Origin: an uncultured Bacillales bacterium
GTDB lineage: Bacteria; Bacillota_I; Bacilli_A; RF39; UBA660
Direction: 5' to 3'
Length of the DNA: 64,000 nt
NCBI GenBank assembly: GCA_945228905.1
Contig: CALYOH010000001.1
Coordinates: 7,464-71,463, forward strand
A program made the position numbers and the translations under genes. Of the stretch, positions 13,663 to 53,043 are shown piece by piece. The notes under the pieces were generated by a model. It saw nothing but the letters and a program-made list of their open reading frames with translations. It did not search any database and was not told the DNA's origin. Every line of letters begins with the position of its first letter. The first letter of the stretch is position 1.

Positions 13663-13663
13663 A

Positions 13664-14419
13664 ATGAAAGTAAGAACAATTGCTAGTGGATCAAAAGGAA
13701 ATTGTACAATAGTTATATGTAATGAAACTAAATTAATAATTGATATGGGAATTTCCTTCCTAACTTTAAAAAAGAGTTTAGAAGAAAATTCCCTTTCTTT
13801 TAATGATTTTAGTGGAATATTAATAACACATTGTCATAATGATCACACTAAGGGTTTGGCTTCCCTAATAAAAAAGACCAATTTAAATGTATATATACCA
13901 GAAGAAATGTATGAAAGTTTAAAAGAACTTGTACCATATCCAAAATGTATAATGATAGAAGATAAATTTAATATAAATGATGTAGAAATAGAACTTATAC
14001 ATACATCACATGATGCTCCATATTCAGTAGGATTTATTATAAAACAAGATGATAAAAGTATGGTCTATGTAACAGATACAGGATATATTAATAGAAAGTA
14101 TCTAAATAAAATGGTTAATCATAACTTATATGTAATAGAAAGTAATCATGATGAAACAATGTTAATGGATGGACCATATCCAAGATTTTTAAAAGAAAGA
14201 GTAATTAGTGATTCAGGTCACTTATCTAATACAACAACAGCTAAATACTTAAAGAAAATAATTGGAGATAAAACAAATACCATAATATTAGCTCACTTAA
14301 GTGAAACTAATAATACTCCAGATAAGGCCTTAGAAGCTATAAAAGAACAAAATTTACCAGAAAAAATAAAAGTATTAATCGCAGACCAATATGAAGCAGG
14401 ACCAATGATTAAAGTATAA
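13664..14419 (+). CDS. MBL-fold metallo-hydrolase (YycJ/WalJ-like)
   Basis: 'ITHCHNDHTKG' (HxHxDH). ATG 13664 chosen because the longer ORF start overlaps the M23 gene in another frame. Confidence 0.8.
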   Translation: MKVRTIASGSKGNCTIVICNETKLIIDMGISFLTLKKSLEENSLSFNDFSGILITHCHNDHTKGLASLIKKTNLNVYIPEEMYESLKELVPYPKCIMIEDKFNINDVEIELIHTSHDAPYSVGFIIKQDDKSMVYVTDTGYINRKYLNKMVNHNLYVIESNHDETMLMDGPYPRFLKERVISDSGHLSNTTTAKYLKKIIGDKTNTIILAHLSETNNTPDKALEAIKEQNLPEKIKVLIADQYEAGPMIKV

Positions 14420-14420
14420 T

Positions 14421-14714
14421 ATGGAAAAAACATCAATAGAAGAAGTAGATGAAGAAAGTTTATTTCGTTTTACTGAGAAAGATAATTTAGAAATAATTGA
14501 AGAAGAAAGAATAAAATCTGCTATTGGATAAAATAATAAAGGAATAGAAAAAACTAAAAAGATATTTTTTAGTAGAGGCAACTTAGGAATAATAAAAGCA
14601 AATGAAGTATGGTTAAGATGGCTAATGAATAGAATATTCATTTAGAGAGATAGATTTGGAATGTTTCAAAATGAAACACAAGAGAAATCCAGAAGAAATG
14701 ATTCAAGAAGGTGA
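14421..14714 (+). pseudogene. Possible nonsense-decayed small gene (one frame, two internal in-frame stops)
   Basis: A single reading frame of 97 codons is interrupted only by TAA 14529 and TAG 14643 in AT-rich DNA where stops should be frequent. No RBS. Confidence 0.3.
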
Positions 14715-14719
14715 AAAAG

Positions 14720-15175
14720 ATGATCAGAATAATTTCAATAGGAGCTATTAAAGAAAAGTATTTAAAAGATGCAATAGATGAATATAAAAAAAGAATTAGT
14801 AAATATACTAATCTTGAAATAATAGAATTAAAAGATGAAGGACTAGTAGAAGAATCTAAATCAATAAAATTAGAAGGAGAAAAAATAGAAAAACATCTAA
14901 ATGATAAAGACTATATTATTACTTTAGAAATAGAAGGAAAAGAATATAAATCAGTGGAATTCGCAGAAAAACTAAGAAATATACAAATAGAAAATAGTAA
15001 TATAGTATTTATCATAGGAGGAAGCTATGGTTTAGCAGACTCAATAAAAGAAAAAGCAAAAATGCACTTATCTTTTTCTAAAATGACTTTTCCACATCAA
15101 TTATTTAGAGTTCTCCTTTTAGAACAAATCTATAGAGCATATAAAATAAATAATAATGAAAGTTATCATAAATAG
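14720..15175 (+). CDS. rlmH: 23S rRNA (pseudouridine1915-N3)-methyltransferase RlmH
   Basis: SPOUT-type 'IVFIIGGSYGL...SFSKMTFPHQLFRVLLLEQIYRAY'. Confidence 0.9.
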   Translation: MIRIISIGAIKEKYLKDAIDEYKKRISKYTNLEIIELKDEGLVEESKSIKLEGEKIEKHLNDKDYIITLEIEGKEYKSVEFAEKLRNIQIENSNIVFIIGGSYGLADSIKEKAKMHLSFSKMTFPHQLFRVLLLEQIYRAYKINNNESYHK

Positions 15176-15183
15176 GAGAAATA

Positions 15184-15798
15184 ATGAAAAATATAATATT
15201 TGATTTTGGTAATGTAATAGTTACTTTTGATGAGAAAGAAATAGTATCACACTTCTCAGATAATATAGAAATTCAAGAATTTTTAATAAAGAATGTAATA
15301 AATTCCCCAGAATGGAATACATATGGACTTATAGATTCAGGATTTATTACAAATGAAGAAGTATGTAGTCTAGTAAATGATAGAACAAATAATATTTATA
15401 AAAACTTAGTAGAAAACTTTATGAGAAACTATTATAAATATATGTATATTCAAAAGGAAGTTATAGAAGTAATAAAAAAATTAAAAGAAAAAGGATATAA
15501 TATATATTTATTATCTAATACTAATGATTTTATGTATGAAAAGTTTATTAAAGATATAGAATATTTATTTGATGGAATGATATTATCATATAGAAATCAT
15601 ACTATAAAACCACATGACGCAATATATAAACGTATAATTGAAAAATATAGTCTAAATCCAGAAGAGTCATTATTTATAGATGATAGAGAAGATAATATTA
15701 AAACTGCTAATAAGTTTGGTATTAAGGGTAGAAGTGTTAAACCAAATGATGTTAATGATATAAAATCAGTATTAAAAGAATATGGAATAGGTGAATAA
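15184..15798 (+). CDS. HAD-superfamily hydrolase (subfamily IA-like)
   Basis: Motif I-like 'IIFDFGNVIV', 'LLSNTN', 'KPHDAIY', 'LFIDDREDNI'. Confidence 0.75.
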   Translation: MKNIIFDFGNVIVTFDEKEIVSHFSDNIEIQEFLIKNVINSPEWNTYGLIDSGFITNEEVCSLVNDRTNNIYKNLVENFMRNYYKYMYIQKEVIEVIKKLKEKGYNIYLLSNTNDFMYEKFIKDIEYLFDGMILSYRNHTIKPHDAIYKRIIEKYSLNPEESLFIDDREDNIKTANKFGIKGRSVKPNDVNDIKSVLKEYGIGE

Positions 15799-15799
15799 T

Positions 15800-16462
15800 A
15801 TGATTGGAAATGGTTGGGATGAATTACTAAAAGAAGAATTTAATAAAGAATACTTTAAAGATCTAATAGAGTTTATAAAAAAAGAATATAAAGAGAAGAC
15901 AATATATCCAAAACAAAACGAAGTATTTAATGCGTTTAGATATACAGATATATCTAATTTAAAAGTAGTTATTTTAGGTCAAGATCCATATCATGGACCA
16001 AATCAAGCAGAAGGATTATCTTTCTCTGTAAGTAATGAAGTATTAAAACCACCTTCATTACAAAATATATTTAAAGAGCTAGAAAGTGATTTGAAAATAC
16101 CATTTCCGAAACATAACTCACTTAAACCATGGACAAAACAAGGGGTATTATTATTAAATGCAGTACTTACAGTAGAAGAACATAAACCAACTTCACATAA
16201 AGATAAAGGATGGGAAACATTCACAGATGACGTTATTAAGATAGTTAATCAAAAAGAAGAACCCGTAGTATTTATATTATGGGGAGCATATGCGAGAAAT
16301 AAAAAATCCTTAATAACAAACCCAAAACATTTAATAATAGAGTCTGCTCATCCATCTCCATTTTCCGCAAGAAATGGATTCTTTGGTAGTAAACCATTCT
16401 CTAAAACAAATGAATTTTTAAGAAAGAATGGAATAAAAGAAATAGATTGGAGAATAGAATAA
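15800..16462 (+). CDS. ung: Uracil-DNA glycosylase
   Basis: 'VILGQDPYHGPNQAEGLSFSV', 'GVLLLNAVLTV', 'SAHPSPFSA'. Start is ambiguous (GTG 15791 or ATG 15800). Confidence 0.92.
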   Translation: MIGNGWDELLKEEFNKEYFKDLIEFIKKEYKEKTIYPKQNEVFNAFRYTDISNLKVVILGQDPYHGPNQAEGLSFSVSNEVLKPPSLQNIFKELESDLKIPFPKHNSLKPWTKQGVLLLNAVLTVEEHKPTSHKDKGWETFTDDVIKIVNQKEEPVVFILWGAYARNKKSLITNPKHLIIESAHPSPFSARNGFFGSKPFSKTNEFLRKNGIKEIDWRIE

Positions 16463-29636: not shown

Positions 29637-32135
29637 ATGGCAATTAAAATATTAAAAAAGATCTTTGATCATGAATATAAAGAATTAAGAAGATTTGCTA
29701 AAATAGCAGATGAAGTAATGGCTCTAGATGAAGAATATTCAAAGTTAACAGATACAGAACTACAAAATAAAACAAATGAATTCAAAGAAAGATTAGCAAA
29801 TGGAGAAACATTAGAAGATATCTTAGTAGAAGCATTTGCAACTGCAAGAGAAGCATCATTCCGTGTAATAGGAGAAAAACATTTCTATGTACAAATTTTA
29901 GGTGCTTTAGCAATACATTATGGTAATATTGCTGAAATGAAAACAGGTGAAGGTAAAACTTTAACTTCTGTATTACCAGCATACTTAAATGCATTAACAG
30001 GAGAAGGAGTACATATCATTACAGTTAATGAATACCTAGCAGGCCGTGATGCTGAATGGATGGGTGGAATTCATAGATTCTTAGGATTAACTGTAGGAGT
30101 AAATGGAAGAGAATTATCACCACAAGAAAAACAAGAAGCATACAACTGTGATATCTTATATTCAACAAATAATGAAGTTGGATTCGACTACTTAAGAGAT
30201 AACATGGTAGTAAGAAAAGAAGATAGAGTACAAAGAAAATTAAACTTTGCAATTATCGACGAAGTAGACTCTGTACTTATAGATGAAGCAAGAACACCAT
30301 TAATTATTTCTGGTGGAGAAATGAAAAACCAAAATCTATATTTAAGTGCAGATAAATGTGTAAAAAGTCTAAAACAAGAAGAAGACTATATACATGATGA
30401 AAAAGTAAATGCAGTTAACTTAACTGAAAAAGGTGCAGATAAAGTAGAAAAAGCATTCCATATAGATAATCTATATGCAGTAGAAAATGCAACATTACTA
30501 CATTTTATTAATCAATCATTACGTGCAAATTATGCGATGAAAAATGATGTAGATTATGTAGTACAAGATGGAGAAATAGTAATAGTTGATCAATTTACTG
30601 GACGTTTAATGAAAGGTAGAGCTTACTCTGATGGATTACATCAAGCAATAGAAGCAAAAGAAGGAGTAAACATCAATGAAGAAACTAAGACATTAGCAAC
30701 TATTACATTCCAAAACTTATTCAGAATGTATAAGAAATTATCAGGTATGACTGGAACTGCTAAAACAGAAGAAGAAGAGTTTAGAGAAATTTATAACATG
30801 TATGTTATAGAAATCCCGACTAATAAACCAGTTATCCGTATTGATGAAGCAGACTTAGTATATGCAACAAAAGAAGCTAAATATGCAGCAATTGTAAGAG
30901 TCGTTAAAGAAAAATATAAAGCAGGACAACCAGTACTTATAGGTACAATTGCAATTGAAACAAGTGAATTAATAAGTAGTTTATTAAAAAAAGCAGGAAT
31001 ACCTCATGAAGTATTAAATGCTAAGAACCATGCACGTGAAGCAGAAATTATTTCAAAGATTGGTTTAGGTAAATCAGTAACAATCGCAACAAATATGGCT
31101 GGTCGTGGTACAGATATTAAACTATCAGACGAAGTAAAAGCTTTAGGTGGATTATGTGTAATTGGTACTGAAAGACATGAATCACGTCGTATCGATAACC
31201 AATTACGTGGGCGTTCAGGACGTCAAGGAGATCCAGGATATACACAATTCTTCGTATCAATGAAAGATGATTTAATGATTAGATTTGGATCAGATAGAAT
31301 CGCATCAATGATGGAAGGAATGGGTATTGGAGATCAAGCTATTAGAAGTAAAGCGTTCACAAAATCTATTGAATCAGCTCAAAAAAGAGTTGAAGGAAAT
31401 AACTTCGATATAAGAAAGAATTTACTACAATATGATGATGTTATGAATAATCAAAGAACATTAATCTATGAAAAGAGAAATAAAATATTAGATAATGACT
31501 CAATTCATGAAATGGTTCTAACTACATTCAGACATCACGTAGAAGACTTAGTTAAATCACATTTAGCACCAAATGGAGTATTAGATGATGAAGACTATGC
31601 AGATATTGTAGAATTCACAAATGAAAACTTATTAAGAAAAGATATTAAAGTAAAAGATATAGAAGGATTATCAGATAGTGAAGTAATTGATCTATTAAGT
31701 AAAAAAGTAATAGATGAGTATGAATCTAAACTAAAAGGTATTCCACAAGAAGTAACAAATGAATTCGAAAAAGTAATTACACTACAAGTATTAGATAATT
31801 ATTGGATGGAACATATTAATACAATGTCTCACTTAAGAGAAGGTATTCACTTAAGAGGATATGCCCAAGAAGATCCATTAAGAGCTTATACTATGGAAGG
31901 TTATGATATGTTCGAATCTATGTTACAAAAGATAGATAAAGATGTCGCAATCTTCTTACTAAAAGCAGAAATAAGACAAAATATAGAAAGAAAAGAACCA
32001 TCTAAAAAGATGATTACAAACGATTCAGAAGCTGCTGAAGTAAAGAAAAAGCCAGTAAGAAAACAAAAGATTGGTAGAAATGATCCATGTCCATGTGGCA
32101 GTGGAAAAAAATATAAGCAGTGCTGCGGAAAGTAA
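29637..32135 (+). CDS. secA: Preprotein translocase ATPase SecA
   Basis: 'EMKTGEGKTL', 'DEVDSVLIDEARTPLIISG', 'MAGRGTDI', C-terminal SEC-C zinc motif 'CPCGSGKKYKQCCGK'. Confidence 0.97.
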   Translation: MAIKILKKIFDHEYKELRRFAKIADEVMALDEEYSKLTDTELQNKTNEFKERLANGETLEDILVEAFATAREASFRVIGEKHFYVQILGALAIHYGNIAEMKTGEGKTLTSVLPAYLNALTGEGVHIITVNEYLAGRDAEWMGGIHRFLGLTVGVNGRELSPQEKQEAYNCDILYSTNNEVGFDYLRDNMVVRKEDRVQRKLNFAIIDEVDSVLIDEARTPLIISGGEMKNQNLYLSADKCVKSLKQEEDYIHDEKVNAVNLTEKGADKVEKAFHIDNLYAVENATLLHFINQSLRANYAMKNDVDYVVQDGEIVIVDQFTGRLMKGRAYSDGLHQAIEAKEGVNINEETKTLATITFQNLFRMYKKLSGMTGTAKTEEEEFREIYNMYVIEIPTNKPVIRIDEADLVYATKEAKYAAIVRVVKEKYKAGQPVLIGTIAIETSELISSLLKKAGIPHEVLNAKNHAREAEIISKIGLGKSVTIATNMAGRGTDIKLSDEVKALGGLCVIGTERHESRRIDNQLRGRSGRQGDPGYTQFFVSMKDDLMIRFGSDRIASMMEGMGIGDQAIRSKAFTKSIESAQKRVEGNNFDIRKNLLQYDDVMNNQRTLIYEKRNKILDNDSIHEMVLTTFRHHVEDLVKSHLAPNGVLDDEDYADIVEFTNENLLRKDIKVKDIEGLSDSEVIDLLSKKVIDEYESKLKGIPQEVTNEFEKVITLQVLDNYWMEHINTMSHLREGIHLRGYAQEDPLRAYTMEGYDMFESMLQKIDKDVAIFLLKAEIRQNIERKEPSKKMITNDSEAAEVKKKPVRKQKIGRNDPCPCGSGKKYKQCCGK

Positions 32136-32173
32136 GTAATTACAAGGGCTTGCGGGATTTTGAAATTAATTTA

Positions 32174-32190
32174 TAGGGAAGAATAGGGAA
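32174..32190 (+). repeat. Two TAGGGAA iterons at 10-bp phasing, abutting motif pair R1
   Basis: tagggaa at 32174-32180 and 32184-32190, read directly. Confidence 0.85.
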
Positions 32191-32209
32191 TTAGATACCT
32201 TTTAGATAC
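32191..32209 (+). repeat. R1: tandem TTAGATAC-ctt-TTAGATAC, 55 nt after the secA stop
   Basis: Exact 8-mers at 32191-32198 and 32202-32209. Confidence 0.95.
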
Positions 32210-32227
32210 CCTGAAAATTTAATTTTT

Positions 32228-32262
32228 GACACATTATATTTTGCTATGATGTGTCTTTTTTA
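32228..32262 (+). terminator. Rho-independent terminator of secA (downstream of R1)
   Basis: gacacat...atgtgtc stem followed by ttttttat. Confidence 0.8.
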
Positions 32263-32304
32263 TAAAATAGTATGCTATAATTATTAAAGATAGGGAGTAG
32301 TAAT

Positions 32305-33426
32305 ATGTACTCAAACTTTGATGAAATAATACAAAATATGATAACACCAGAAATGAATAGTGAGGAATTCTTAAAACTATTATTAACATCTGAAATGGAT
32401 CCAGTAAAAGGTAAATTAATGTTAACTAAGAATTTTAATTATGATTTAAATTCAAATCATAGTGAAGATTTAAGTTTTTTTGTAAATAATGTTAAATTTA
32501 AAGCAGAAATATTTTTAAAAAGTATAGAAAAATTACCATTAGAAATAATTCAAGAAAACCAAAATGGAATAACTAATAAGACATTTATTTCGTTTATGAA
32601 GTTTTTATCAACAATCTCTCCAGAAAAGTATTGGGAAATGGTAAATTTGAAAAGAGATAAAAATGTTGGAGATGAAAATAAGAAAAAAAGATTTATTGGA
32701 TACTATGAAAGACTACTTGGTGATAAACATGGTTTTGATTTTGATCCAACTTCTATGGCCTGGTATTATTTTAGAAGCTATACAATGTCTCCGGCAAATA
32801 ATGAAAGTTTTCATACAGATGATGTAAAACATAGATTGTATATTGCAATAAATTATGATCAATTAATGAGTTTTACAACAGATTTTATAAGTAAATTAGA
32901 AGAAGTTAATCAACCGTATTTATTAAAAATCAAAAGCTGCAGACCCAGCGGAAAGTGTCCAGAAAATGATATGTTGGTTATTTATGCTGATACTGAAGAA
33001 AGAGTATTAAAATATGTTAATATATTAAATGAAATGATAAAAGGTAACCAAGAATATGAACAGTCAATTCATATTCCATCATCGCATTTAGGAATTATTG
33101 ATGGTAAAATTGGGTATGGTAGAGAATTTGGAAAAGAGTCATCATATTCAGGTGTTGTTGGTGAAATTGGTGGTAAAGTAATAAGAACAGCCTTACGTGA
33201 TGTGTATTATGGAAGAGGACAATCTAGAGATTATTCTAAAAAGGAGATGTTTGAGGTTATACAACATATGAAAATATCATTATCAAGTAGAGATGTTTTT
33301 GAAAATTTTAAAGAAAATTTTTGGGATGAGTTTTATAAAATATGTGAACAAAGAGGATATAATATGGATGAATCTATTTGCGTTGGTGAGAGAGAAGAGC
33401 ATAAAATAGATAGAAAACGGAACTGA
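32305..33426 (+). CDS. Orphan 373-aa cytoplasmic protein, family not confidently recognised
   Basis: Own extended -10 (tgcTATAAT 32273-32281) and RBS agggag. The segment 'HRLYIAINYD...YLLKIKS...NDMLVIYAD' faintly recalls HopA1/LanKC-N-lyase-like proteins (unverified). Confidence 0.6.
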   Translation: MYSNFDEIIQNMITPEMNSEEFLKLLLTSEMDPVKGKLMLTKNFNYDLNSNHSEDLSFFVNNVKFKAEIFLKSIEKLPLEIIQENQNGITNKTFISFMKFLSTISPEKYWEMVNLKRDKNVGDENKKKRFIGYYERLLGDKHGFDFDPTSMAWYYFRSYTMSPANNESFHTDDVKHRLYIAINYDQLMSFTTDFISKLEEVNQPYLLKIKSCRPSGKCPENDMLVIYADTEERVLKYVNILNEMIKGNQEYEQSIHIPSSHLGIIDGKIGYGREFGKESSYSGVVGEIGGKVIRTALRDVYYGRGQSRDYSKKEMFEVIQHMKISLSSRDVFENFKENFWDEFYKICEQRGYNMDESICVGEREEHKIDRKRN

Positions 33427-33438
33427 AGATAGAGAAAT

Positions 33439-33458
33439 TTAGATACCTTATTAGATAC
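33439..33458 (+). repeat. R2: tandem TTAGATAC-ctta-TTAGATAC, 12 nt after the stop of the 373-aa gene
   Basis: Exact 8-mers at 33439-33446 and 33451-33458. Confidence 0.95.
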
Positions 33459-33506
33459 TTTGTTCACTATAAATCCCTATTTATACACATTTCTTCATAG
33501 TGCTTA

Positions 33507-33533
33507 AAGGGAATTATAGGGAAAATAAGGGAT
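33507..33533 (+). repeat. Three (A/T)AGGGA(A/T) iterons at exact 10-bp phasing (plus an inverted TCCCTA at 33474-33479)
   Basis: aagggaa 33507, tagggaa 33517, aagggat 33527. Confidence 0.85.
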
Positions 33534-33587
33534 AAAATATAAAGAAATAAAACAAATTAAAGATTTATAGTGATTGAAATAGTAAAA

Positions 33588-33641
33588 GACACATGTCCAT
33601 GTGGCTCAGGAAAAAAATATAAACAATGCTGTGGTAAATAA
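33588..33641 (+). other. secA' : displaced copy of the secA 3' end (SEC-C motif 'DTCPCGSGKKYKQCCGK*')
   Basis: The 13 terminal codons encode the same peptide as secA 32097-32135 and differ only at synonymous positions. No plausible full gene sits around it. Confidence 0.9.
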
Positions 33642-33697
33642 CAGGAAAACCCGATTTTTGAGCTTTTTATAATATAACATAAACTAAAAAGTTAAAA

Positions 33698-33717
33698 TTA
33701 GATACAAATTTAGATAC
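33698..33717 (+). repeat. R3: tandem TTAGATAC-aaat-TTAGATAC, 56 nt after the secA' stop
   Basis: Exact 8-mers at 33698-33705 and 33710-33717. Confidence 0.95.
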
Positions 33718-33735
33718 ATTTTTTTGAGATTTTTT

Positions 33736-33754
33736 GTATCTAATTTGTATCTAA
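33736..33754 (-). repeat. R3inv: inverted tandem GTATCTAA-ttt-GTATCTAA, forming a 19/20-bp palindrome with R3
   Basis: Reverse complement of R3 minus one spacer T; 18-nt loop between the arms. Confidence 0.95.
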
Positions 33755-33844
33755 AAATATTTTAAAACTATAAAAGTATTGAAAAACAAGGAAAATTTAA
33801 GTTAAGTGACCGCTTTCGCTTTGGTAGTGGTCATTTGTTAATAT

Positions 33845-33873
33845 TTGAAAAATTAAGTAAAATATGTTATAAA
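33845..33873 (+). promoter_or_regulatory. Promoter of the ABC exporter unit
   Basis: TTGAAA (33845-33850), 17 bp, TATAAA (33868-33873) with upstream TG (extended -10). Confidence 0.55.
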
Positions 33874-33905
33874 ATAAGCAATTGAATTTTAAAGGGGGAA
33901 ATAGA

Positions 33906-35672
33906 GTGAAAAAGAATAATTTAACAAAAGTATTGAAAAAAATATATAAATTGTTAGATACAAAACAAAAATTAAGATTTATTTTAATAATTATTATAAT
34001 GATAGTTTCTGCTGCACTTGCTCAAATGACACCCAAAGCAATTGGATGGCTTACAGATGATATATTAACTAAAAACGAAATATCATTCAATAAAGTTATT
34101 CCATTTTTAGTATTTATATTAGTAGTAAATGTAGTAAATGAAGTAATAAAGATATTTAGAAGAGTATTAGTTGAAGATACAGCGACAAGAACAGAAAAGA
34201 AAGCAAGAGGAATGGTAATAAAATCATTATTGATGGCACCATTATCTTATTTTAGAAAAAATATGACTGGAAATATTCATGGAAGGCTTAATAGATGCTT
34301 AGATGGAACTATTAAATTAGAAAAATTATTATTTATGGATTTTGCTCCAGCTATATTTAATGCAGTTGCTGCAATTATAACCATATTCTTAACATTACCT
34401 ATTACACTTGCATTACCAATGTTATTAGTTATTCCAATAGGAGTATATATTGTTTTAAAACAAATTAAGAGTCAAAAAGGTATAAGAGTAGAACTCTTAG
34501 AAAGCAAATCAGGAATGGATGGAACTATTGTTGAACTAATAAATGGAATAGAAGTAATAAGAATTTGTGATAGTTTAGATTTCGAAACGAAAAGATTTGA
34601 CGACAAAGGTGAATTTTTAAGAGCAAAAGAAATGAAACATCATAAAGCCATGGCAATGTATGACTGTTTGAAATTTATTAACCAAGCTATATTTACAGTT
34701 TTAGTAATTGGAATTTCTACATATTTAGCAACTAAGAATATAATATCAGTTGGTGCTGTATTAACTGCATATCTATGTTTCAATCAATTGCTAAGACCAT
34801 TAGAAGAATTGCATAGAATATTTGATGAAGTTTCTGAATGTACAGTTTTAGCAACAGATTTCTTTAAAATGGTAGAAATAGAAAATGACTTTTCATATTT
34901 ACCAATAAATAAAGAATCAGAGAATAAATCAACAAATGAGATTATAAACATGGAAAATATAACTTTCCATTATTCTGAAAATGAAGATAAGATTATTTTA
35001 GATAATTTTAATATTGATATAGAAAAGGGAATGTATCTTGGAATTGCTGGACCATCAGGTTGTGGAAAATCTTCATTGATAAAATCAATTTGTAAATTTG
35101 AAAAAGCTAATGGAACAATAATTGTTGATGATAAAAATATTGATAATTTAACAAGAAAAGATTTATCAAAATTAATAGCATTAGTACCTCAAAGTCCATT
35201 CTTAATTGCAGGAACAATATTTGAAAATATAACATATGGAATTGATAGAGAAGTTTCTATTGAAGAGGTTGAGGAAGCAGCTAGAAGAGCATATATTTAT
35301 GATTATATAAATGGACTTCCAGATAAATTTGATTCACTGGTTTCTGAAGGAGGAAATAATCTATCAGGTGGGCAAAGACAAAGAATTGCTATTGCAAGAA
35401 TATTCTTAAGAAAACCTAAAATACTAATTTTAGATGAAGCAACATCAGCTCTTGATAATACATATGAAAAATATATTCAAGCTGAAATAGAAAAAATGAA
35501 ACAGGAAAATAATACAACAATTATTGCAATTGCACATAGATTAACTACATTGAAAAATTGTGATAGAATTATTGTGCTTAATAAAGGTAAGATTGAAGAA
35601 GATGGAAAATTTGATGATCTTATAGAACAAAATGGAATGTTTAGTGACATGTATTACGGAAAGTTGAATTAA
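33906..35672 (+). CDS. Fused TMD-NBD ABC exporter (MsbA/bacteriocin-exporter type, no C39 peptidase domain)
   Basis: Six-TM N-terminal half. Walker A 'GPSGCGKSS', signature 'LSGGQRQRIAIAR', Walker B 'ILILDEATSALD'. GTG 33906 preferred (RBS aaggggg); TTG 33882 is possible. Confidence 0.88.
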   Translation: MKKNNLTKVLKKIYKLLDTKQKLRFILIIIIMIVSAALAQMTPKAIGWLTDDILTKNEISFNKVIPFLVFILVVNVVNEVIKIFRRVLVEDTATRTEKKARGMVIKSLLMAPLSYFRKNMTGNIHGRLNRCLDGTIKLEKLLFMDFAPAIFNAVAAIITIFLTLPITLALPMLLVIPIGVYIVLKQIKSQKGIRVELLESKSGMDGTIVELINGIEVIRICDSLDFETKRFDDKGEFLRAKEMKHHKAMAMYDCLKFINQAIFTVLVIGISTYLATKNIISVGAVLTAYLCFNQLLRPLEELHRIFDEVSECTVLATDFFKMVEIENDFSYLPINKESENKSTNEIINMENITFHYSENEDKIILDNFNIDIEKGMYLGIAGPSGCGKSSLIKSICKFEKANGTIIVDDKNIDNLTRKDLSKLIALVPQSPFLIAGTIFENITYGIDREVSIEEVEEAARRAYIYDYINGLPDKFDSLVSEGGNNLSGGQRQRIAIARIFLRKPKILILDEATSALDNTYEKYIQAEIEKMKQENNTTIIAIAHRLTTLKNCDRIIVLNKGKIEEDGKFDDLIEQNGMFSDMYYGKLN

Positions 35673-35675
35673 ATT

Positions 35676-35695
35676 TTAGATACAAATTTAGATAC
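35676..35695 (+). repeat. R4: tandem TTAGATAC-aaat-TTAGATAC, 3 nt after the ABC exporter stop, running into its terminator stem
   Basis: Exact 8-mers at 35676-35683 and 35688-35695. Confidence 0.95.
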
Positions 35696-35725
35696 CTTGA
35701 AAAAGAACAATCAAGGTCTTTTTTT
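35694..35725 (+). terminator. Rho-independent terminator of the ABC exporter
   Basis: accttga-10 nt-tcaaggt followed by cttttttt. The stem begins inside R4. Confidence 0.8.
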
Positions 35726-35805
35726 GAAAATATAATTGCATGTATCTATACATTTAAATAAAATAATTGTATAATTAAAATGTAAAATAGAAAGGAGTAA
35801 TTTAA

Positions 35806-36315
35806 ATGGAAGAAAAGAAAAAGAGTAATGTTGGATTAATCGTACTTGTAGTTATTTTATTGCTAGCATGCATAGGAATGGGATGTTATATTGGATATGA
35901 TAAACTATTAAGTGATAATAAGTGTATAATAGAAGAAGATTCAAAGAGTGAAACTAATTCAAAAAATGAAAAACAAACAATCACAGAACAAACACAAACA
36001 AATGAAGAAAGCAATACCACTTCAAGTAAGGTAAGATGTTATGGAACATATTATGTAAATGGAGATAAAAATAGCGGAGTATACACACTAAAAGAAGATG
36101 GCACATGGAATGTTGAAAATGGTGAACAATATGGAGTATTTACTATAAATGAAAATACAATTACTATGATCGAAGAAAAACATACAGTTGGTCCTAGAGA
36201 AGAAGATCCATATTATTATAATCCAAAGAGTTATTTAATCTCAGATGATTGTTCTAAAATAAGATTAACTGAATCTGGAAGTCATACATCTGCTACTCTA
36301 AATAAAGTAAATTAA
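35806..36315 (+). CDS. Small membrane-anchored/secreted protein, unknown function
   Basis: 169 aa. N-terminal TM 'VGLIVLVVILLLACIGMGCYIG', Ser/Thr/Glu-rich linker, then a globular C-terminus. RBS aaaggag. Confidence 0.55.
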   Translation: MEEKKKSNVGLIVLVVILLLACIGMGCYIGYDKLLSDNKCIIEEDSKSETNSKNEKQTITEQTQTNEESNTTSSKVRCYGTYYVNGDKNSGVYTLKEDGTWNVENGEQYGVFTINENTITMIEEKHTVGPREEDPYYYNPKSYLISDDCSKIRLTESGSHTSATLNKVN

Positions 36316-36328
36316 AAAACAATTAAAT

Positions 36329-36353
36329 AAAGACTATTTTAAATAGTCTTTTT
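36329..36353 (+). terminator. Rho-independent terminator of the small membrane protein gene
   Basis: aaagactat-tttaa-atagtcttt followed by tt. Confidence 0.75.
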
Positions 36354-36359
36354 AGATAA
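36352..36359 (+). repeat. Single degenerate motif copy TTAGATAA (7/8)
   Basis: Immediately follows the terminator stem. Confidence 0.5.
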
Positions 36360-36414
36360 CTATATTGTTCAAAAAACGAAAAACATTGCAAAATATATGA
36401 AGAATACAGCAGTT

Positions 36415-36453
36415 GGCAGTGGAAAAAAATATAAACAATGTTGTGGTAAATAA
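36415..36453 (+). other. secA'' : second displaced, shorter copy of the secA 3' end ('GSGKKYKQCCGK*')
   Basis: 13 codons encode a peptide identical to the secA terminus with only synonymous differences. The upstream CPC codons are lost. Followed by the hairpin atctcgt...acgagat. Confidence 0.85.
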
Positions 36454-36534
36454 TCTCGTTTTTCCTTATAATAAAGGAATTACGAGATTTTTCTTTGCTC
36501 AACATTATGTGAAATTTTTACCAAAAAAAGGCGG

Positions 36535-36553
36535 TTAGATACGTTTTAGATAT
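36535..36553 (+). repeat. R5: tandem TTAGATAC-gtt-TTAGATAT, 81 nt after the secA'' stop
   Basis: 8/8 at 36535-36542 and 7/8 at 36546-36553. The second copy runs into the palindrome atatgtttttt/aaaaaacatat. Confidence 0.9.
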
Positions 36554-36588
36554 GTTTTTTCTTAAAAAACATATTAAATCGTCTAAAT

Positions 36589-36608
36589 AAAATAACAAAC
36601 GTTATTTT
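36589..36608. promoter_or_regulatory. Putative TetR operator 1 (AAAATAAC-aaac-GTTATTTT)
   Basis: 20-bp site with 8-bp inverted arms, identical to the copy at 36643-36662. Lies just upstream of the -35. Confidence 0.6.
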
Positions 36609-36612
36609 TACA

Positions 36613-36641
36613 TTGACAAATATTGTAAAGTAGTGTATATA
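36613..36641 (+). promoter_or_regulatory. Promoter of the TetR-methyltransferase operon
   Basis: TTGACA (36613-36618), 17 bp, TATATA (36636-36641). Confidence 0.65.
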
Positions 36642-36642
36642 C

Positions 36643-36662
36643 AAAATAACAAACGTTATTTT
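36643..36662. promoter_or_regulatory. Putative TetR operator 2, covering the predicted transcription start
   Basis: Exact repeat of the 20-bp site at 36589-36608. Confidence 0.6.
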
Positions 36663-36684
36663 ATATATTTTTGAGGTGATGTTT

Positions 36685-37239
36685 ATGGCGAGAACTATTA
36701 AATTTTCTAAAGAAGATATATTGGAAAAGAGTGTTGAATTTATAAAGAAAAAAGGTTACTCTAATCTAACAGTTAGAGAACTTGCTAAATATATAGGATG
36801 TTCAACACAGCCAATATTTAAAAATTATGAAAACTTTGATATGTATAAAGAGAATCTTAAATTCTATTTAAGGAAAGATTACTCATCATTTATTCGTAAG
36901 TATATAGATATAAAAGATTATTTATATACAATAAGTTATGCATATGCTTTTTATGCAAAAAAAGAACCAAATGTATTCTTTTCATTATTTATGGCAGATC
37001 TTGCTGGTTCTAGAACAGTAAGTGAAGTATTAAATACTGATAGAAACAAGGAAACTATTAATGCAATGGTAAAACAATATAAAATATCTTTAGAAGATGC
37101 AAAAAAAATATACCGTGAAGTAAGATTCTATACTCATGGTATCGCAACACAATTATGTGTTAATAGTATTAAATTAACTGATAAAGAAATCAAAGATTTA
37201 ATTAAAAATAATATAGAAATTAACTTAAGGGGGATATAA
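36685..37239 (+). CDS. TetR/AcrR-family transcriptional regulator
   Basis: N-terminal HTH 'GYSNLTVRELAKYIGCSTQPIFKNY'. ATG 36685 lies 7 nt after gaggtg. Confidence 0.8.
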   Translation: MARTIKFSKEDILEKSVEFIKKKGYSNLTVRELAKYIGCSTQPIFKNYENFDMYKENLKFYLRKDYSSFIRKYIDIKDYLYTISYAYAFYAKKEPNVFFSLFMADLAGSRTVSEVLNTDRNKETINAMVKQYKISLEDAKKIYREVRFYTHGIATQLCVNSIKLTDKEIKDLIKNNIEINLRGI

Positions 37240-37241
37240 TT

Positions 37242-37877
37242 ATGAATTTATATGAAAGAAATCAAAAACAAAGAACATTCTTTAATGAAAAGATAGATTC
37301 TTATGATGATGTACATAGTACATATGTAGAAACTAAAAAAACATTAGGAGATAGCCTAGATAAAGAAACAAAAAAAATATTAGACTTGGGTGCAGGTACA
37401 GGACTAGAATTAATTCATGTATTTGAATTATTCCCAAGTGTTGAAGTAACAGTCATAGATATTACCGAAAATATGCTTGAAGAATTAAAAAAAAGAAGTT
37501 TTGCAGATAATGTAACTACTATATGTGGCGATTTCTTTGAAGTAGAATTTGGAGATAGTTATGATGCAGTTATATCTACATCAGCACTTCACCATTTTAA
37601 ACCAGAAGAAAAAATAAAACTATATAAAAAAATATATAATTGTTTAAAAGACAATGGTCAGTTCATAAATTGTGATAAAATAGCTCTAACACAAGAAATA
37701 GAAGATGGTCAATTATATGAGCTAGAAAACAATATAGAAAATTATAAACATATAGATACGCCACTTACTGTAGAACATGAAATAGAAGTATTAAAAAATG
37801 TTGGCTTTCAAGAAATAACTTCGAGCAATGTAGATAAAGATGATTATAGTCTATTTAAGGCTAGAAAAATGAAATAA
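37242..37877 (+). CDS. Class I SAM-dependent methyltransferase
   Basis: Motif I 'ILDLGAGTGLE', 'VIDITENML', 'DAVISTSALHH'. Begins 2 nt after the TetR stop. Confidence 0.8.
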   Translation: MNLYERNQKQRTFFNEKIDSYDDVHSTYVETKKTLGDSLDKETKKILDLGAGTGLELIHVFELFPSVEVTVIDITENMLEELKKRSFADNVTTICGDFFEVEFGDSYDAVISTSALHHFKPEEKIKLYKKIYNCLKDNGQFINCDKIALTQEIEDGQLYELENNIENYKHIDTPLTVEHEIEVLKNVGFQEITSSNVDKDDYSLFKARKMK

Positions 37878-37878
37878 T

Positions 37879-37897
37879 TTAGATACTTTTGAGATAC
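37879..37897 (+). repeat. R6: tandem TTAGATAC-ttt-TGAGATAC, 1 nt after the methyltransferase stop
   Basis: 8/8 at 37879-37886 and 7/8 at 37890-37897. An inverted GTATCTAg copy at 37920-37927 (7/8 match to GTATCTAA) allows a hairpin gatacgtt...aacgtatc. Confidence 0.9.
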
Positions 37898-37970: not shown

Positions 37971-38087
37971 AGAGGATTTGAACCGTTGTCATAGTGATAT
38001 GGGTGATTTCTGTTCCTATATTGATAAAAATAGTATAAGATGATAAAATACATTTGACAAAATTGCTTGTATAAGGAGTTTGATTAT

Positions 38088-39113
38088 ATGAATTATTTAG
38101 AAAGCGTGGATAAGAGAATAATAGAATATTTCAACATATTAGAACCAGAATTTCCTCTATGGCTTAATGATTACATAAATACTAAAGATTTATTATCTCA
38201 AAAATATATAAGCGTAACCTGCGGTACTATTTATTCTAATTTGTTTGAAAGCAATTTTTTCTTTTCTAGTTTAGATCATGCTGTTGCAGTAGCATTAATT
38301 GTTTGGCATTTTACTAGAGATAAAAAACAAACTTTATCTGGATTATTTCATGATATTGCGACTCCAGCTTTTAAACATTGTGTTGATTTTTTGAATGGAG
38401 ATTATATGACACAAGAATCAACAGAAGATTTAACAACAGAAATAATAAAAAATTCTAATGAAATAGTAAAACTATTAGAAAGAGATAATATTAAAATATC
38501 AGAAATATATAATTATCATATTTATCCGATTGCAGATAATGATACCCCAAGATTATCTGCTGATAGGTTAGAATATTCTTTATCAAACGCACTATTTACT
38601 TATGGATTATTAGATATAGAAAGTATTAAAGAAATTTATAATGACATAGAAATTCAAGAAAATTCGGAAAATGAAATGGAATTAGGATTTAAAACAAAGA
38701 AAATAGCAAGAAATTTTGTAAAAGTTACGAGTAGATTATCTATAATTTATAGGGAGGATAGAACTAGATATTCTATGCAATTTATTGCAGATATTTTGAA
38801 AAAATTAAATAATGAACATAAAATTTCAAAACAGGATTTATATAATCTAAAAGAAAGTGAAGTAATAGATATCATAGAATCATCTAAATATAAAGATATT
38901 TTTAATCTTTGGAAGAATGCTACAAAAGTAAAAACTTCAAAAGAAGAACCTAAAGATGTCTATTATGTTCATCATGGTGCAAAGATAAGATATATTGATC
39001 CATTAGTTAATGGCGAGAGGATATCGGTGCTTTGTAAAATAGCTAATAGCATGATAAATAAAAATTTATCATATGATATGAATAATTATGTTTATTTAGA
39101 TTTTAAATTTTAA
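38088..39113 (+). CDS. HD-domain protein (paralogue of 50138..51058)
   Basis: 'LDHAVAVALIV...LSGLFHDIATPAFKHCVDF...DTPRLSADRLEYS'. ATG 38088 follows RBS aaggag. Aligns along its length with the 50.1-kb paralogue. Confidence 0.75.
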   Translation: MNYLESVDKRIIEYFNILEPEFPLWLNDYINTKDLLSQKYISVTCGTIYSNLFESNFFFSSLDHAVAVALIVWHFTRDKKQTLSGLFHDIATPAFKHCVDFLNGDYMTQESTEDLTTEIIKNSNEIVKLLERDNIKISEIYNYHIYPIADNDTPRLSADRLEYSLSNALFTYGLLDIESIKEIYNDIEIQENSENEMELGFKTKKIARNFVKVTSRLSIIYREDRTRYSMQFIADILKKLNNEHKISKQDLYNLKESEVIDIIESSKYKDIFNLWKNATKVKTSKEEPKDVYYVHHGAKIRYIDPLVNGERISVLCKIANSMINKNLSYDMNNYVYLDFKF

Positions 39114-39120
39114 TAATATT

Positions 39121-39140
39121 TTAGATACATAATTAGATAC
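39121..39140 (+). repeat. R7: tandem TTAGATAC-ataa-TTAGATAC, 7 nt after the HD gene stop
   Basis: Exact 8-mers at 39121-39128 and 39133-39140. Confidence 0.95.
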
Positions 39141-39208
39141 GTTCTGCTAGTGAAGCGGAGTGTAACTGAGTGTATAAAAGAGCAAATATACAGGATAAAA
39201 TGCTTTAA

Positions 39209-39440
39209 AGTAGAGCACATTTTGATAGAATAGCCGATCCAGAAAATGACACTATCTTAATGGTTAACATAAAAAAATGGAATTGATAATTATGTAGGAC
39301 CAAATAGTTTCGCAGAAATAGCTTTTGGATTTTATTTTAGGAAAAAAGTATATTTATTAAATGATATTTATGAACCATTTAAAGATGAAATAATTGGTTG
39401 GAATATAACTCCTTTAAAAGGTGACTTAAATAAATTATGA
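39209..39440 (+). pseudogene. 5'-truncated and frameshifted gene remnant at the distal edge of the array
   Basis: Frame A reads '...FDRIADPENDTILMVNIKKWN*'. It shifts in the A7 run (39271-39277) to frame B 'KNGIDNYVGPNSFAEIAFGFYFRKKVYLLNDIYEPFKDEIIGWNITPLKGDLNKL*'. No start codon or N-terminal half. Confidence 0.45.
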
Positions 39441-39447
39441 AAATAAT

Positions 39448-39473
39448 AAAAGACTAGAAATGGTCTTTTTTTT
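39448..39473 (+). terminator. Rho-independent terminator closing the array
   Basis: aaagacta-gaaa-tggtcttt followed by ttttt. Confidence 0.75.
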
Positions 39474-50108: not shown

Positions 50109-50137
50109 TGTTATAATATCAAGTGCTGGAGGGTATT

Positions 50138-51058
50138 ATGTTTAAAGAATATTATTTAAAATTACTAAATTATGATAATGTACCAGATTTCTTAAAAAGA
50201 TATTTAGAGGTACCAACTCTACAAAGATTAAAAGAAATAGGTTATTTTTGTGGAATGGATTATGCATCAAAGAATATATATAATTTTAAAGAGTATATTT
50301 CAAGATATGATCACTCTCTAACTGTTGCATTATTAGTATATAAATTAACTGAAGATAAGACCGCAACAATTGCAGGACTATTTCATGATATAAGTACTCC
50401 TTGTTTTTCTCATGTAATTGATTATATGAATAAAGACTATAATAAACAAGAAAGTACAGAAAAAAATATGCTTAAAGTTATAGAAAGTGATTCAACACTA
50501 CTAAATTTATTACGAGAGGACAAAATAAAAGCAGATGAAATAGTAGAATTTAAAGAATTCACTATAGTTGATAATGATAGACCAAAATTATGTGCTGATA
50601 GGTTAGATGGTATTATTCATACTGGATATAACTGGACTAAAGAAATAGAACTAAGTGATATTAATGAGATAATTAATAATATAGAAATATATAAAAATGA
50701 AGATGAAGAAGCTGAAATAGGATTTAAATCAAAAGAAGTCGCAAACAAAGTGTATGAATTTTCTGAAACTATAAATAAAGTATGTCATTCTAGTGAAGAT
50801 AACTATATGATGGAGCTACTTGCTAAAATAACTAGATATTCTATTAATAAAGGTTATATTACATATGATGAGTTATTCACATCTACTGAGGAAAAAATAT
50901 TTAATAAATTTGATAGTAAGAAAGATACATTCTTAAAAGAGTTACTAAAAGAATTTAGAACAATAGAAGCATCTTCAATACCATATATTGAATTACCTAA
51001 CTTAAAAGTAAGAGATATAAATCCATTAGTAAATGGAAAAAGATTAAGGAATGAATAA
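50138..51058 (+). CDS. HD-domain protein (paralogue of 38088..39113)
   Basis: 'YDHSLTVALLV...IAGLFHDISTPCFSHVIDY...DRPKLCADRLDG'. ATG 50138 follows ggaggg. Confidence 0.75.
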   Translation: MFKEYYLKLLNYDNVPDFLKRYLEVPTLQRLKEIGYFCGMDYASKNIYNFKEYISRYDHSLTVALLVYKLTEDKTATIAGLFHDISTPCFSHVIDYMNKDYNKQESTEKNMLKVIESDSTLLNLLREDKIKADEIVEFKEFTIVDNDRPKLCADRLDGIIHTGYNWTKEIELSDINEIINNIEIYKNEDEEAEIGFKSKEVANKVYEFSETINKVCHSSEDNYMMELLAKITRYSINKGYITYDELFTSTEEKIFNKFDSKKDTFLKELLKEFRTIEASSIPYIELPNLKVRDINPLVNGKRLRNE

Positions 51059-51944: not shown

Positions 51945-53043
51945 ATGGAAATAAAAGAATTAAAAAAAGAAATTAACAAAAATAATGAAATAATTAATAA
52001 TCTATGGAGGTCACTTTGACATAGATTCTAAAAAGAAAAAAATAGAAGAATTAGAAAATAAAACTAAAGATCTTAATTTTTGGAATGATAGAGATAATGC
52101 TGAAAAAGTATTAAAAGAAATAAATGATTTAAAAGATACAATATCAAAAGTAGAAGTAATAAAAAATGATATTAATTCTAATTTAGAAGTATTAGATTTA
52201 CTAGAAGTAGAAGAAGATAAAGACTTATATAATGAAGTATCTGATAATATAAATGAGATAAGTAAAAGAACTGAAGAATTAAATTTATTACTATTATTAA
52301 ACGGTCCATATGATAAAAATGACTGTATATTAGAAATACATCCAGGAGCAGGTGGAACAGAGTCTTGTGACTGGGCTAGTATGCTTTATAGAATGTATTT
52401 AAGATGGTGTGAAAGAAAAGGATATAAAGTAGAATTACTAGATTATCAATCAGGAGATGAAGCTGGTATTAAGAGTGTTTCTATAATGGTAAAAGGAAAA
52501 AATGCCTATGGTTATCTTAAAAATGAAAAAGGTGTACACAGACTAGTAAGATTATCTCCATTTGATTCTAATAATAGACGTCATACATCATTCGCATCAG
52601 TAGAAATAACACCAGATATAGATAAAGATGTAGACATAGAAATAGATGAAAAAGACTTAAAGATAGATGTATATCGTTCAACAGGAGCAGGAGGACAAGG
52701 AGTAAATACAACAGATTCAGCAGTAAGAATAACACATCTACCTTCAAAGATAGTTGTTACTTGTCAAAATGAAAGAAGTCAAATACAAAATAAAGAACAA
52801 GCTCTTCGAGTATTAAAAAATAAATTATTATTAATAAAAATAGAAGAGCAAGAAAAAGAATTAAATAAAATTAAAGGAGAACAATCCAATATAGAATTTG
52901 GATCTCAAATAAGAAGTTATGTTATGCATCCATATTCTATGGTAAAAGATCATAGAACTAATGTAGAAACAAGTAATGTATCAAAAGTTATGGATGGAGA
53001 CATAGATATGTTTATAGAAGAAAATCTAAAAAGGGGCTTGTAA
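51945..53043 (+). CDS. prfB: Peptide chain release factor 2, requiring a programmed +1 frameshift at 52014-52020
   Basis: Frame 0 'MEIKELKKEINKNNEIINNLWRSL' stops at TGA 52017. Frame +1 from 52018 is open and continues 'DIDSKKKKIEEL...GAGGTESCDWASMLYRMY...SPF...[16 protein letters not shown]'. Confidence 0.92.
52006..52020 (+). promoter_or_regulatory. prfB autoregulatory frameshift site (internal SD GGAGG + CTT TGA C)
   Basis: ggagg-tca-CTT-TGA-C read directly. Matches the canonical RF2 recoding signal. Confidence 0.9.

Follow-up and report, generated by a model that had tools for sequence, protein, structure and literature searches.

In Escherichia coli, e14 and phage 21 integrate at the 3' end of icd, where a phage-borne alternative gene end, differing mostly at synonymous positions, replaces the end of the host gene. 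In staphylococci, the staphylococcal cassette chromosome (SCC) elements SCCmec, pseudo-SCC and composite SCC are inserted serially at the 3' end of rlmH (orfX), and units lacking a recombinase rely on recombinases acting in trans. Integrative mobile elements exploiting Xer (IMEX) and pdif modules are Xer-dependent and form tandems of small, recombinase-less modules. Tandem integration at a gene 3' end is also the basis of the accretion model for streptococcal integrative and conjugative elements (ICEs), integrative and mobilizable elements (IMEs) and cis-mobilizable elements (CIMEs), for example ICESt1/ICESt3 and CIMEs at fda of Streptococcus thermophilus (PMC5704250), and serial integration at one site has been described for tycheposons, the tRNA-flanked island arrays of Prochlorococcus (bioRxiv 10.1101/2020.12.28.424599). 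Here we compare these systems with the secA locus of an uncultured Bacillales bacterium, contained in a 64-kb stretch of contig CALYOH010000001.1 (hereafter the window). In our reading, to which we give a probability of roughly 85%, the DNA from 32136 to about 39211 behind secA is a tandem array of small, integrase-less mobile cassettes that was built by repeated site-specific recombination at the secA 3' end.

The mechanism, tandem accretion at a gene 3' end, is known; secA as the target and integron-like cassette arrays at such a site appear to be undescribed. An earlier reading made from the letters of the window (the sequence-only reading) had remarked that secA is not a well-known integration target. 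Our literature search agrees, since no match named secA as an attachment site; the matches concerned SecA2, phytoplasma typing and SecA biochemistry, and the streptococcal ICE/IME literature returned by the search did not mention secA at all. For comparison, a SecA scan with one genome per species yielded 80 loci from uncultured gut and rumen Bacilli, one of them Candidatus Faecimonas, and a metagenome scan for a secA end followed after 53-83 nt by a pair of TTAGATAC motifs yielded at least 120 contigs. In total, 201 sequences with a locus length of at most 22 kb were compared; individual loci carry numbers (L001 and so on).

Copies of the secA end in the window and in its relatives

A degenerate pattern for the final 13 codons of secA (GSGKKYKQCCGK and the stop) matches three times in the window, always on the + strand (32097-32135, 33603-33641 and 36415-36453), and had no match in 100 shuffles of the sequence. 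A nucleotide profile built from 105 native secA ends found the same three cores between 32 and 52 kb and nothing else. These are exactly the recurrences reported by the sequence-only reading. It had also described the second copy as longer, encoding DTCPCGSG..., and indeed a repeat search extended this copy to 33584-33641, with 81% identity to 32078-32135 over 58 nt; the third copy begins only at the GSG codons. Pairwise, the copies differ at 8, 6 and 4 nucleotides, and the peptide GSGKKYKQCCGK is the same in all of them. Under equal numbers of random substitutions the peptide was kept with frequencies of 0, 1e-5 and 7e-4 (100,000 trials). The observation that all differences are synonymous is therefore borne out. 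The conclusion drawn from it, that each copy had once served as a functional secA end, stands only in part: the copies are coding-competent, but service in the present genome is not required, because elements that replace the end of an essential gene must carry a coding-competent end. Likewise, the copies do lie within the region first delimited (32082-36453), but the feature extends to about 39211 (Table 1).

At least two secA ends on the same strand were found in 19 of the 80 related loci, with up to five in L057, and the metagenome contigs, at least 120 of which show the junction of secA end and pair, also contain arrays of up to five copies. Across the 201 sequences, the profile search recovered 142 native ends and 167 displaced ends that are intact, together with about 30 decayed ones that show missense, nonsense or frameshift changes; 357 of 360 profile hits lay on the secA strand. 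The displaced ends of the related loci are all located downstream of secA and co-oriented with it. Tandem arrays with decaying target ends, as the sequence-only reading had expected, are thus represented in the relatives by a series from intact to decayed copies. Some contigs (L010, L023, L029, L036 and L050) end exactly at ...CCATGT/GG (the slash marks the contig end) inside the secA 3' end, which is the signature of an assembly break at the repeated core.

The closest relative, L001, encodes a SecA that is 96% identical and ends in ...QCHGK before the stop. Here, secA is directly followed by a terminator and then by ordinary genes, and neither secA-end copies nor TTAGATAC pairs were found at this secA locus. 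L001 and the window share sequence on the right of the array, after which the phosphofructokinase gene (pfk) follows in both. A relative without the array and with a shared right flank thus exists, and its lack is what the sequence-only reading had regarded as fatal to serial insertion. Since the gene remnant at 39212-39472 is intact in L001, the array comprises 32136 to about 39211, and its right edge is taken as a deletion that removed the original secA end. Between the shared remnant and pfk, L001 carries glutathione peroxidase-, MarR-, thioredoxin- and thioredoxin reductase-like genes (14083-16345, read from the translation). The window lacks this block, a separate indel in the same interval.

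The displaced copies correspond to native secA termini of other lineages: copy 2 agrees with the native end of L049 at 46 of 47 positions, and copy 3 with L012 at 33 of 33. DNA found on the right of copy 3 directly follows native secA in many metagenome contigs. In L229, for instance, the TetR/methyltransferase cassette stands directly behind native secA and matches from the pair onward (82.5% over 1280 nt). Both results are in line with what the sequence-only reading predicted for serial insertion.

The working end of secA itself appears to be of foreign origin. Compared with L001, its final 48 nt show 8 differences where the mean is 3.5, a value in the top 5% of the stretches compared. From TATAAGCAGTGCTG (about 32114) rightwards this end is near-identical to a cassette of L054, a locus whose secA body is 80% identical, and by this measure copy 1 belongs to cassette 1 from that point on. 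The near-identity to the L054 cassette and the excess of differences to L001 together argue that cassette 1 donated the working secA end. At the fourth zinc ligand of the SEC-C motif, the window has Cys (QCCGK, 32120-32128) and the closest relatives have His (QCHGK; L001 12484-12492). The replacement end is thus predicted to alter a metal ligand of the essential SecA protein.

In Bacillota, prfB usually follows secA. In the window, prfB (51945-53043, second reading frame 52381-53043) lies about 19.8 kb downstream of secA; the 15 loci extending as far as prfB have distances of about 1.3 to about 9 kb. Given this variation, the whole interval is a variable island.

Cassette units, paired motifs and integrases

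Cutting the arrays from core to core gave 148 segments, of which 137 are without integrase-like sequence, 9 contain an integrase fragment and 2 a full gene. Their median length is 1.66 kb (range 0.26-8.1 kb). One open reading frame (ORF) of at least 100 aa is present in 79 segments and two are present in 38, with 262 of 269 ORFs co-oriented with secA. The cargo is diverse, 266 ORFs falling into 192 clusters; most common are GNAT acetyltransferases, ATP-binding cassette (ABC) transporters, S-adenosylmethionine (SAM)-dependent methyltransferases, parts of type I restriction-modification systems, helix-turn-helix regulators and Fic proteins. In L068, the first cassette behind secA contains an IS110-family transposase gene on the opposite strand (12938-14131), and large proteins made of 5-7 DUF4379 treble-clef zinc-finger repeats are the cargo directly behind secA in L067 (12767-14683) and L054 (12769-14241).

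Individual cassettes are far more similar between loci than the secA genes that precede them. Window positions 32089-33461 are 95.4% identical to L054 15969-17341, with secA bodies at 80.3%, and this cassette 1 is the first of the array in the window and the third in L054. A cassette shared by L040 and L049 is 96.7% identical (secA 80%), one shared by L037 and L040 97% (secA 81%), and one shared by L052 and L061 96% (secA 88%), the last two standing at different array positions. Identities of cassettes far above those of secA indicate recent movement as small units, and on this comparison we conclude that cassettes are transferred horizontally as such units. Cassette 1 (32136-33641) has both arms, both cores and a cargo gene only, which is the structure of a CIME.

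TTAGATAC occurs 25 times in the window, compared to 4.5 +/- 2 expected, and direct pairs with a spacing of 11-12 nt are found only between 32 and 39 kb (starts in Table 1). The sequence-only reading had correctly placed pairs 55 and 56 nt behind copies 1 and 2; behind stop 3 the distance is 81 nt. Intact junctions in the window, L054 and L040 share a common plan of pair, spacer, core, spacer and pair. Over all loci, the downstream (P') pairs cluster at 55-56 and 81-82 nt after the stop, and the upstream (P) pairs, which were part of no search pattern, have starts that precede the second Cys codon of the core by 130-131, 148 or 160-162 nt. Within one segment, a pair on one arm tends to go with a pair on the other (39/36/7/66, odds ratio about 10). 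Orphan pairs away from any core are rare (11 of 216), three of them being in the window. Elements without TTAGATAC have other short motifs repeated at equivalent arm positions, such as TTTGTCCAC in L040, with three occurrences in one arm and one in the opposite arm, and TGTGCAC in a different element. Fixed pairs flanking a core are the arrangement of arm-type sites in attP of the lambda, L5 and Tn916 type. We therefore regard the TTAGATAC pairs as putative arm-type binding sites of a lambda/Tn916-type tyrosine integrase, because of their fixed two-sided geometry and because in three prophages (L261, L272 and L308) a pair is positioned between secA and the integrase gene, lying against the 3' end of that gene in L272 and L308.

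Integrases are present at the secA end of relatives. L080 harbors a 4.5-kb element between two secA ends that encodes a kinase, a tyrosine integrase, an ORF6N-like protein and a Fic protein. Its integrase is complete (Arm-DNA-bind_4, SAM_3 and Phage_integrase domains), and elements of this type with a broken integrase gene were found in L016 and L064. A second family (L011 type), 37-39% identical to the L080 type, begins some 230 nt behind the secA stop in about a dozen genomes. In L261, L272 and L308, the native secA end and the TTAGATAC pair are followed by an integrase gene on the opposite strand and a CI-like repressor. Further genes of L261 are annotated as Erf, exonuclease, SSB, NinB and DnaD-like, and by gene content the L261-type element is predicted to be a temperate phage. 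Its integrase represents a third family that is 25-30% identical to the others and has the Tn1549 integrase as nearest solved relative. At least three predicted tyrosine integrase families, 25-39% identical to one another, have thus converged on the same 45 nt. As is typical of an integrative element, the window shows co-oriented target-end repeats together with an intact secA, and a relative has the unoccupied site; an integrase inside the element is absent from the window and present at the same site in L080, the L011 type, L261, L272 and L308.

Table 1. Features of the secA locus in order along the window; arm designations are putative.
Feature	Position	Strand	Basis or remark
secA, 832 aa, target gene	29637-32135	+	ORF list; reading frame kept by the putatively element-supplied end
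Core copy 1 (attL core), working secA end CPCGSGKKYKQCCGK and stop	32088-32135	+	profile match
Whole array	32136 to ~39211		probably at least 3 insertions; ~7 kb
P' arm of cassette 1: TAGGGAA x2 (32170-32190), then TTAGATAC pair 32191-32209	32136-32212	+	55 nt after stop
Intrinsic terminator from cassette 1	32228-32255	+
Cassette 1 cargo: 373-aa protein (ORF373)	32305-33426	+	95% identical to L054 16185-17291
P arm of cassette 1: TTAGATAC pair 33439-33458, spacer with TAGGGAA-like repeats	33439-33587	+
Core copy 2, displaced secA end (DTCPCGSGKKYKQCCGK and stop)	33588-33641	+	pattern, repeat and profile matches
P' arm of next unit: TTAGATAC pair 33698-33717 and inverted pair 33736-33754	33642-33754	+	56 nt after stop 2
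Cargo: fused permease/ATPase ABC exporter, MsbA/bacteriocin-exporter type	33882-35672	+	Pfam ABC_membrane and ABC_tran; NCBIfam
Orphan TTAGATAC pair, no core adjoining	35676-35695	+	3 nt after ABC exporter stop
Cargo: 169-aa protein (ORF169), N-terminal membrane anchor	35806-36315	+	homologues in L057 and L075 cassettes
Core copy 3, displaced, 5'-shortened secA end (GSGKKYKQCCGK and stop), CPC part missing	36414-36453	+	pattern and profile matches
Long-spacer P' arm: hairpin, then pair TTAGATACgttTTAGATAT 36535-36553	36454-36556	+	81 nt after stop 3
Cargo: TetR-family regulator (36676-37239) and SAM-dependent methyltransferase (37242-37877)	36676-37877	+	Pfam
Orphan pair TTAGATACttttGAGATAC	37879-37897	+	1 nt after methyltransferase stop
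Cargo: 348-aa HD-like protein (ORF348)	38067-39113	+	33% identical to HD-domain protein at 50123-51058
Last P arm: pair 39121-39140 and first ~70 nt of 'gttctgctag...' spacer type	39121-39211	+	cut off, core missing
3' half of chromosomal gene, intact in L001 (13666-14048)	39212-39441	+	blastn, 82% identity; right edge of array

Several parts of the window array have counterparts elsewhere (Table 1). The P' arm type of cassette 1 recurs in many metagenome loci, and its terminator is predicted to terminate secA. The P-arm pair of this cassette begins 161 nt ahead of the core's second Cys codon, and the same arrangement of pair, spacer and core is seen in L259 (82.5%), L280 and L303. A second short motif, (A/T)AGGGAA, is present in both arms of cassette 1 beside the TTAGATAC pairs (32170-32190 and 33508-33535) and may be where an accessory factor, for example an excisionase, binds. 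In the next unit, the TTAGATAC pair and its inverted copy form a 57-nt palindrome (33698-33754); extra inverted pairs similar to that at 33736-33754 occur in 13 places in related loci, e.g., L054 12692. A counterpart of the 35676 pair together with the following 200 nt (87% identical) stands directly behind native secA in L227, and the P' arm behind copy 3 shares about 75% identity with the arm that separates secA from the prophage integrase in L261 and L272. In L054 and L040, cores are preceded by the full version of the 'gttctgctag...' arm. The 20-nt near-palindrome AAAATAACAAACGTTATTTT stands in two copies shortly before the TetR-family gene; these repeats, at 36588-36662 within the stretch 36581-36667, are probably operators of this gene. 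The chromosomal HD-domain protein related to ORF348 is encoded 11 kb downstream.

Database searches assigned little to the remaining parts. ORF373 had no match in Pfam, NCBIfam, PADLOC or PHROG and ORF169 none in Pfam or NCBIfam, and PADLOC and PHROGs gave no meaningful assignment for the unassigned cargo proteins. Exact-protein look-ups returned no match for SecA and ORF373 and only short contigs for Hpf. No RNA family was matched by Rfam between 31.5 and 40 kb, and the profile detected no further decayed cores at the orphan pairs or beyond 39140.

Proposed mechanism and competing explanations

We propose that recombination would take place within a core that comprises the final ~45 nt of secA (beginning at CCATGTGG, ending with the stop codon), encodes the SEC-C zinc finger and has AAATATAA as its likely centre. 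Each element would carry a coding-competent secA end flanked by two arms, and each arm would contain two TTAGATAC(n)TT sites in direct orientation at a spacing of one helical turn, positioned about 130-160 nt upstream of the core or 55-56 or 81-82 nt downstream of it. Upon integration, the end brought by the element would be fused to secA, leaving the gene intact, and the previous end would be pushed downstream; repetition of this step would stack cassettes. Serial insertion at the secA 3' end, as put forward by the sequence-only reading, thereby stands, and its count of at least two events is raised to at least three, since the window has three cores. All pairs of the array are direct repeats, and deletions between them would swap spacers between cassettes. 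In particular, recombination of a P-arm pair with the next P'-arm pair would remove a core and leave a single orphan pair, as seen at 35676 and 37879, and a further deletion would have removed the last core together with flanking chromosomal genes. We infer such a deletion history for this array. Cassettes could move in trans, if an integrase of matching arm specificity acts on them, or in cis, if they are excised together with a neighboring integrase-bearing element, and the L261-type prophage would be a possible supplier of the integrase.

A number of results weigh against this reading. The three integrase families of the relatives, used as queries, have no homologue in the 64-kb window, which leaves the present mobility of its cassettes unproven. 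An N-terminal arm-binding domain was not detected by Pfam (E <= 10) in integrases of the L261 and L308 type; it was detected in the two other integrase families. No attP-bearing free phage or circular form was found in IMG/VR or the GenBank phages. The junction of pair and secA end had no match in IMG/VR, where a bare TTAGATAC pair gave single hits that look like chance; the GenBank phage collection had no DNA match to the junction, and the integrase relatives in it reach about 30% identity at best. The TTAGATAC junction was itself the criterion by which the metagenome loci were chosen, and the 22-kb limit biases the segment statistics towards small units. Finally, the homology between cassette 1 and L054 stops three bases after the P-arm pair instead of reaching the next core. 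Such an edge is unexpected for a simple core-to-core element, and we put it down to deletions between pairs.

This last point is the starting point of a different explanation, in which the pairs are transcription-factor operators or recombination sites of another enzyme, and cassettes are exchanged at the pairs instead of at the secA-end core. Cargo homology does begin or end exactly at pairs, namely at the right edge of ORF373 and the left edges of ORF169 and of the TetR/methyltransferase genes (the latter two in comparison with L227 and L229), direct repeats 11-12 nt apart would also suit response-regulator boxes, and the associated integrase shows no Pfam arm-binding domain. Operators or unrelated crossover sites would, however, hardly be found on either side of the core at constant spacings (55/82 and 130/148/160 nt), nor would only 11 of 216 pairs stand apart from a core; other element families place different repeated motifs at the same positions, the pair lies between secA and the integrase gene in all three prophages, and direct repeats are unlike the crossover sites of tyrosine or serine recombinases. 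We consider this explanation improbable. Somewhat less improbable, yet still unlikely in our view, is that the cassettes are wreckage: whole prophages or integrative elements would have inserted serially at secA and then been deleted down to their end-proximal genes and att sites, so that the units are immobile. The CIME concept derives such units from decay (PMC5704250), and integrase fragments (9 of 148 segments), decayed cores and the deletions in the window itself, with its orphan pairs and truncated right edge, all fit. Decay does not explain, however, why a 1.3-kb cassette with both arms is 95% identical between loci with 80% identical secA, or why others reach 96-97% at different array positions. 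Moreover, phage genes are lacking in 137 of 148 segments although their cores are intact and both arm pairs are often preserved, and the ends of a few element families would hardly have yielded 192 cargo clusters.

The idea that the downstream copies are independent small genes for SEC-C-motif peptides, which the sequence-only reading had named as a threat to its own interpretation, has next to no chance of being correct. The peptide is conserved, and possible starts exist 6 codons upstream of copy 2 (GTG) and of copy 3 (ATG), but the longest ORFs over these copies have 23 and 18 codons, no Shine-Dalgarno sequence was found for either, and in copy 3 two of the four zinc ligands, the CxC half of the motif, are missing. 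Many copies in relatives have an in-frame stop 1-3 codons upstream, e.g., KICN*IPCGSG and NTWIS*TCGSG (asterisk, stop). Among 156 distinct displaced copies, conservation starts abruptly at CCATGTGG regardless of the preceding sequence, with the same third-position wobble as in native ends, and copies were found only downstream of secA, on the secA strand. Stand-alone SEC-C motif (PF02810-type) genes, which have a start and ribosome-binding site of their own together with a complete CxC...C(C/H) motif and occur independently of secA, were also considered as a class, and the copies do not fit this description. Duplication without site-specific recombination was rejected as well, since it could not account for one and the same junction architecture recurring across hundreds of unrelated contigs.

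Within our reading of a recombination-built array, one extension is attractive and, at well below even odds, still tentative. The arrays might form a working cassette-exchange system, in which a minimal element of cargo and complete attP would be moved in trans by integrases that temperate phages, or other elements with the same arm code, encode, and would travel between species as a phage passenger. This would amount, functionally, to an integron that has the end of an essential gene as its platform and a borrowed integrase, in a clade of uncultured gut and rumen Bacilli. If mobilization in trans holds true, the site would also provide a compact natural attP/attB pair for genetic tools in low-GC Firmicutes.

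Relation to known systems

The locus adds secA, which is essential and universally conserved, to the short list of protein-coding genes whose 3' ends are integration hot spots. Accessory genes, among them those for GNATs, transporters, methyltransferases, restriction-modification parts and Fic proteins, circulate in poorly known uncultured gut and rumen Bacilli as units of one or two genes that lack a recombinase of their own. On the practical side, metagenome-assembled genomes of this clade break systematically inside the secA 3' end, and the interval between secA and prfB is a ready-made marker of strain variation.

Streptococcal ICEs and CIMEs come close to the secA arrays in design. Both use a tyrosine integrase at the 3' end of a housekeeping gene with a replacement end, contain integrase-less units flanked by att sites, and let a new element enter a resident's att site, so that composite excision is possible. 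The secA units are smaller (median 1.7 kb, mostly one gene), stand in arrays of up to five and carry hyperdiverse cargo, and the integrase-bearing partner with TTAGATAC arms is a prophage. Conjugation genes were not noticed among the annotated ORFs, although no search aimed at them was made. With e14 and phage 21 the secA elements share the alternative 3' end of an essential or housekeeping gene that replaces the host's upon integration, but there it is brought by a single prophage and not by a cassette array, and both the gene and the host group differ. SCC elements are likewise inserted serially at the 3' end of one conserved gene and bounded by gene-end repeats; they differ in using large serine recombinases (Ccr), in short repeats without arm sites and in units of 10-60 kb. 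In tycheposons, older elements are also pushed inward, partial target copies and fragmented integrases lie scattered, and cargo is carried, but their targets are tRNA genes, their own integrase is normally present and their hosts are marine cyanobacteria. IMEX and pdif modules resemble the secA arrays in that small recombinase-less modules bounded by recombination sites accumulate in tandem, whereas they depend on the host XerC/D and 28-bp dif-like sites, with neither gene-end replacement nor arm sites.

The likeness to integrons is of a different kind. Many small, mostly single-gene and co-oriented cassettes with diverse cargo and no recombinase of their own are common to both, as are GNATs, methyltransferases and toxin-like proteins among the cargo. 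In contrast to integrons, the secA arrays have no adjacent intI/attI platform, a coding core with direct-repeat arms replaces the folded attC hairpins, and some cassettes, such as cassette 1, bring their own promoter-like sequences and terminators. The integrases at the secA site are of the lambda/Tn916 type, and that of integrons is IntI. A classical integron was rejected for the window, where the array is headed by secA and neither an integrase nor attC-type junctions are present. The secA arrays are thus integron-like in outcome, yet fail every structural definition of an integron.

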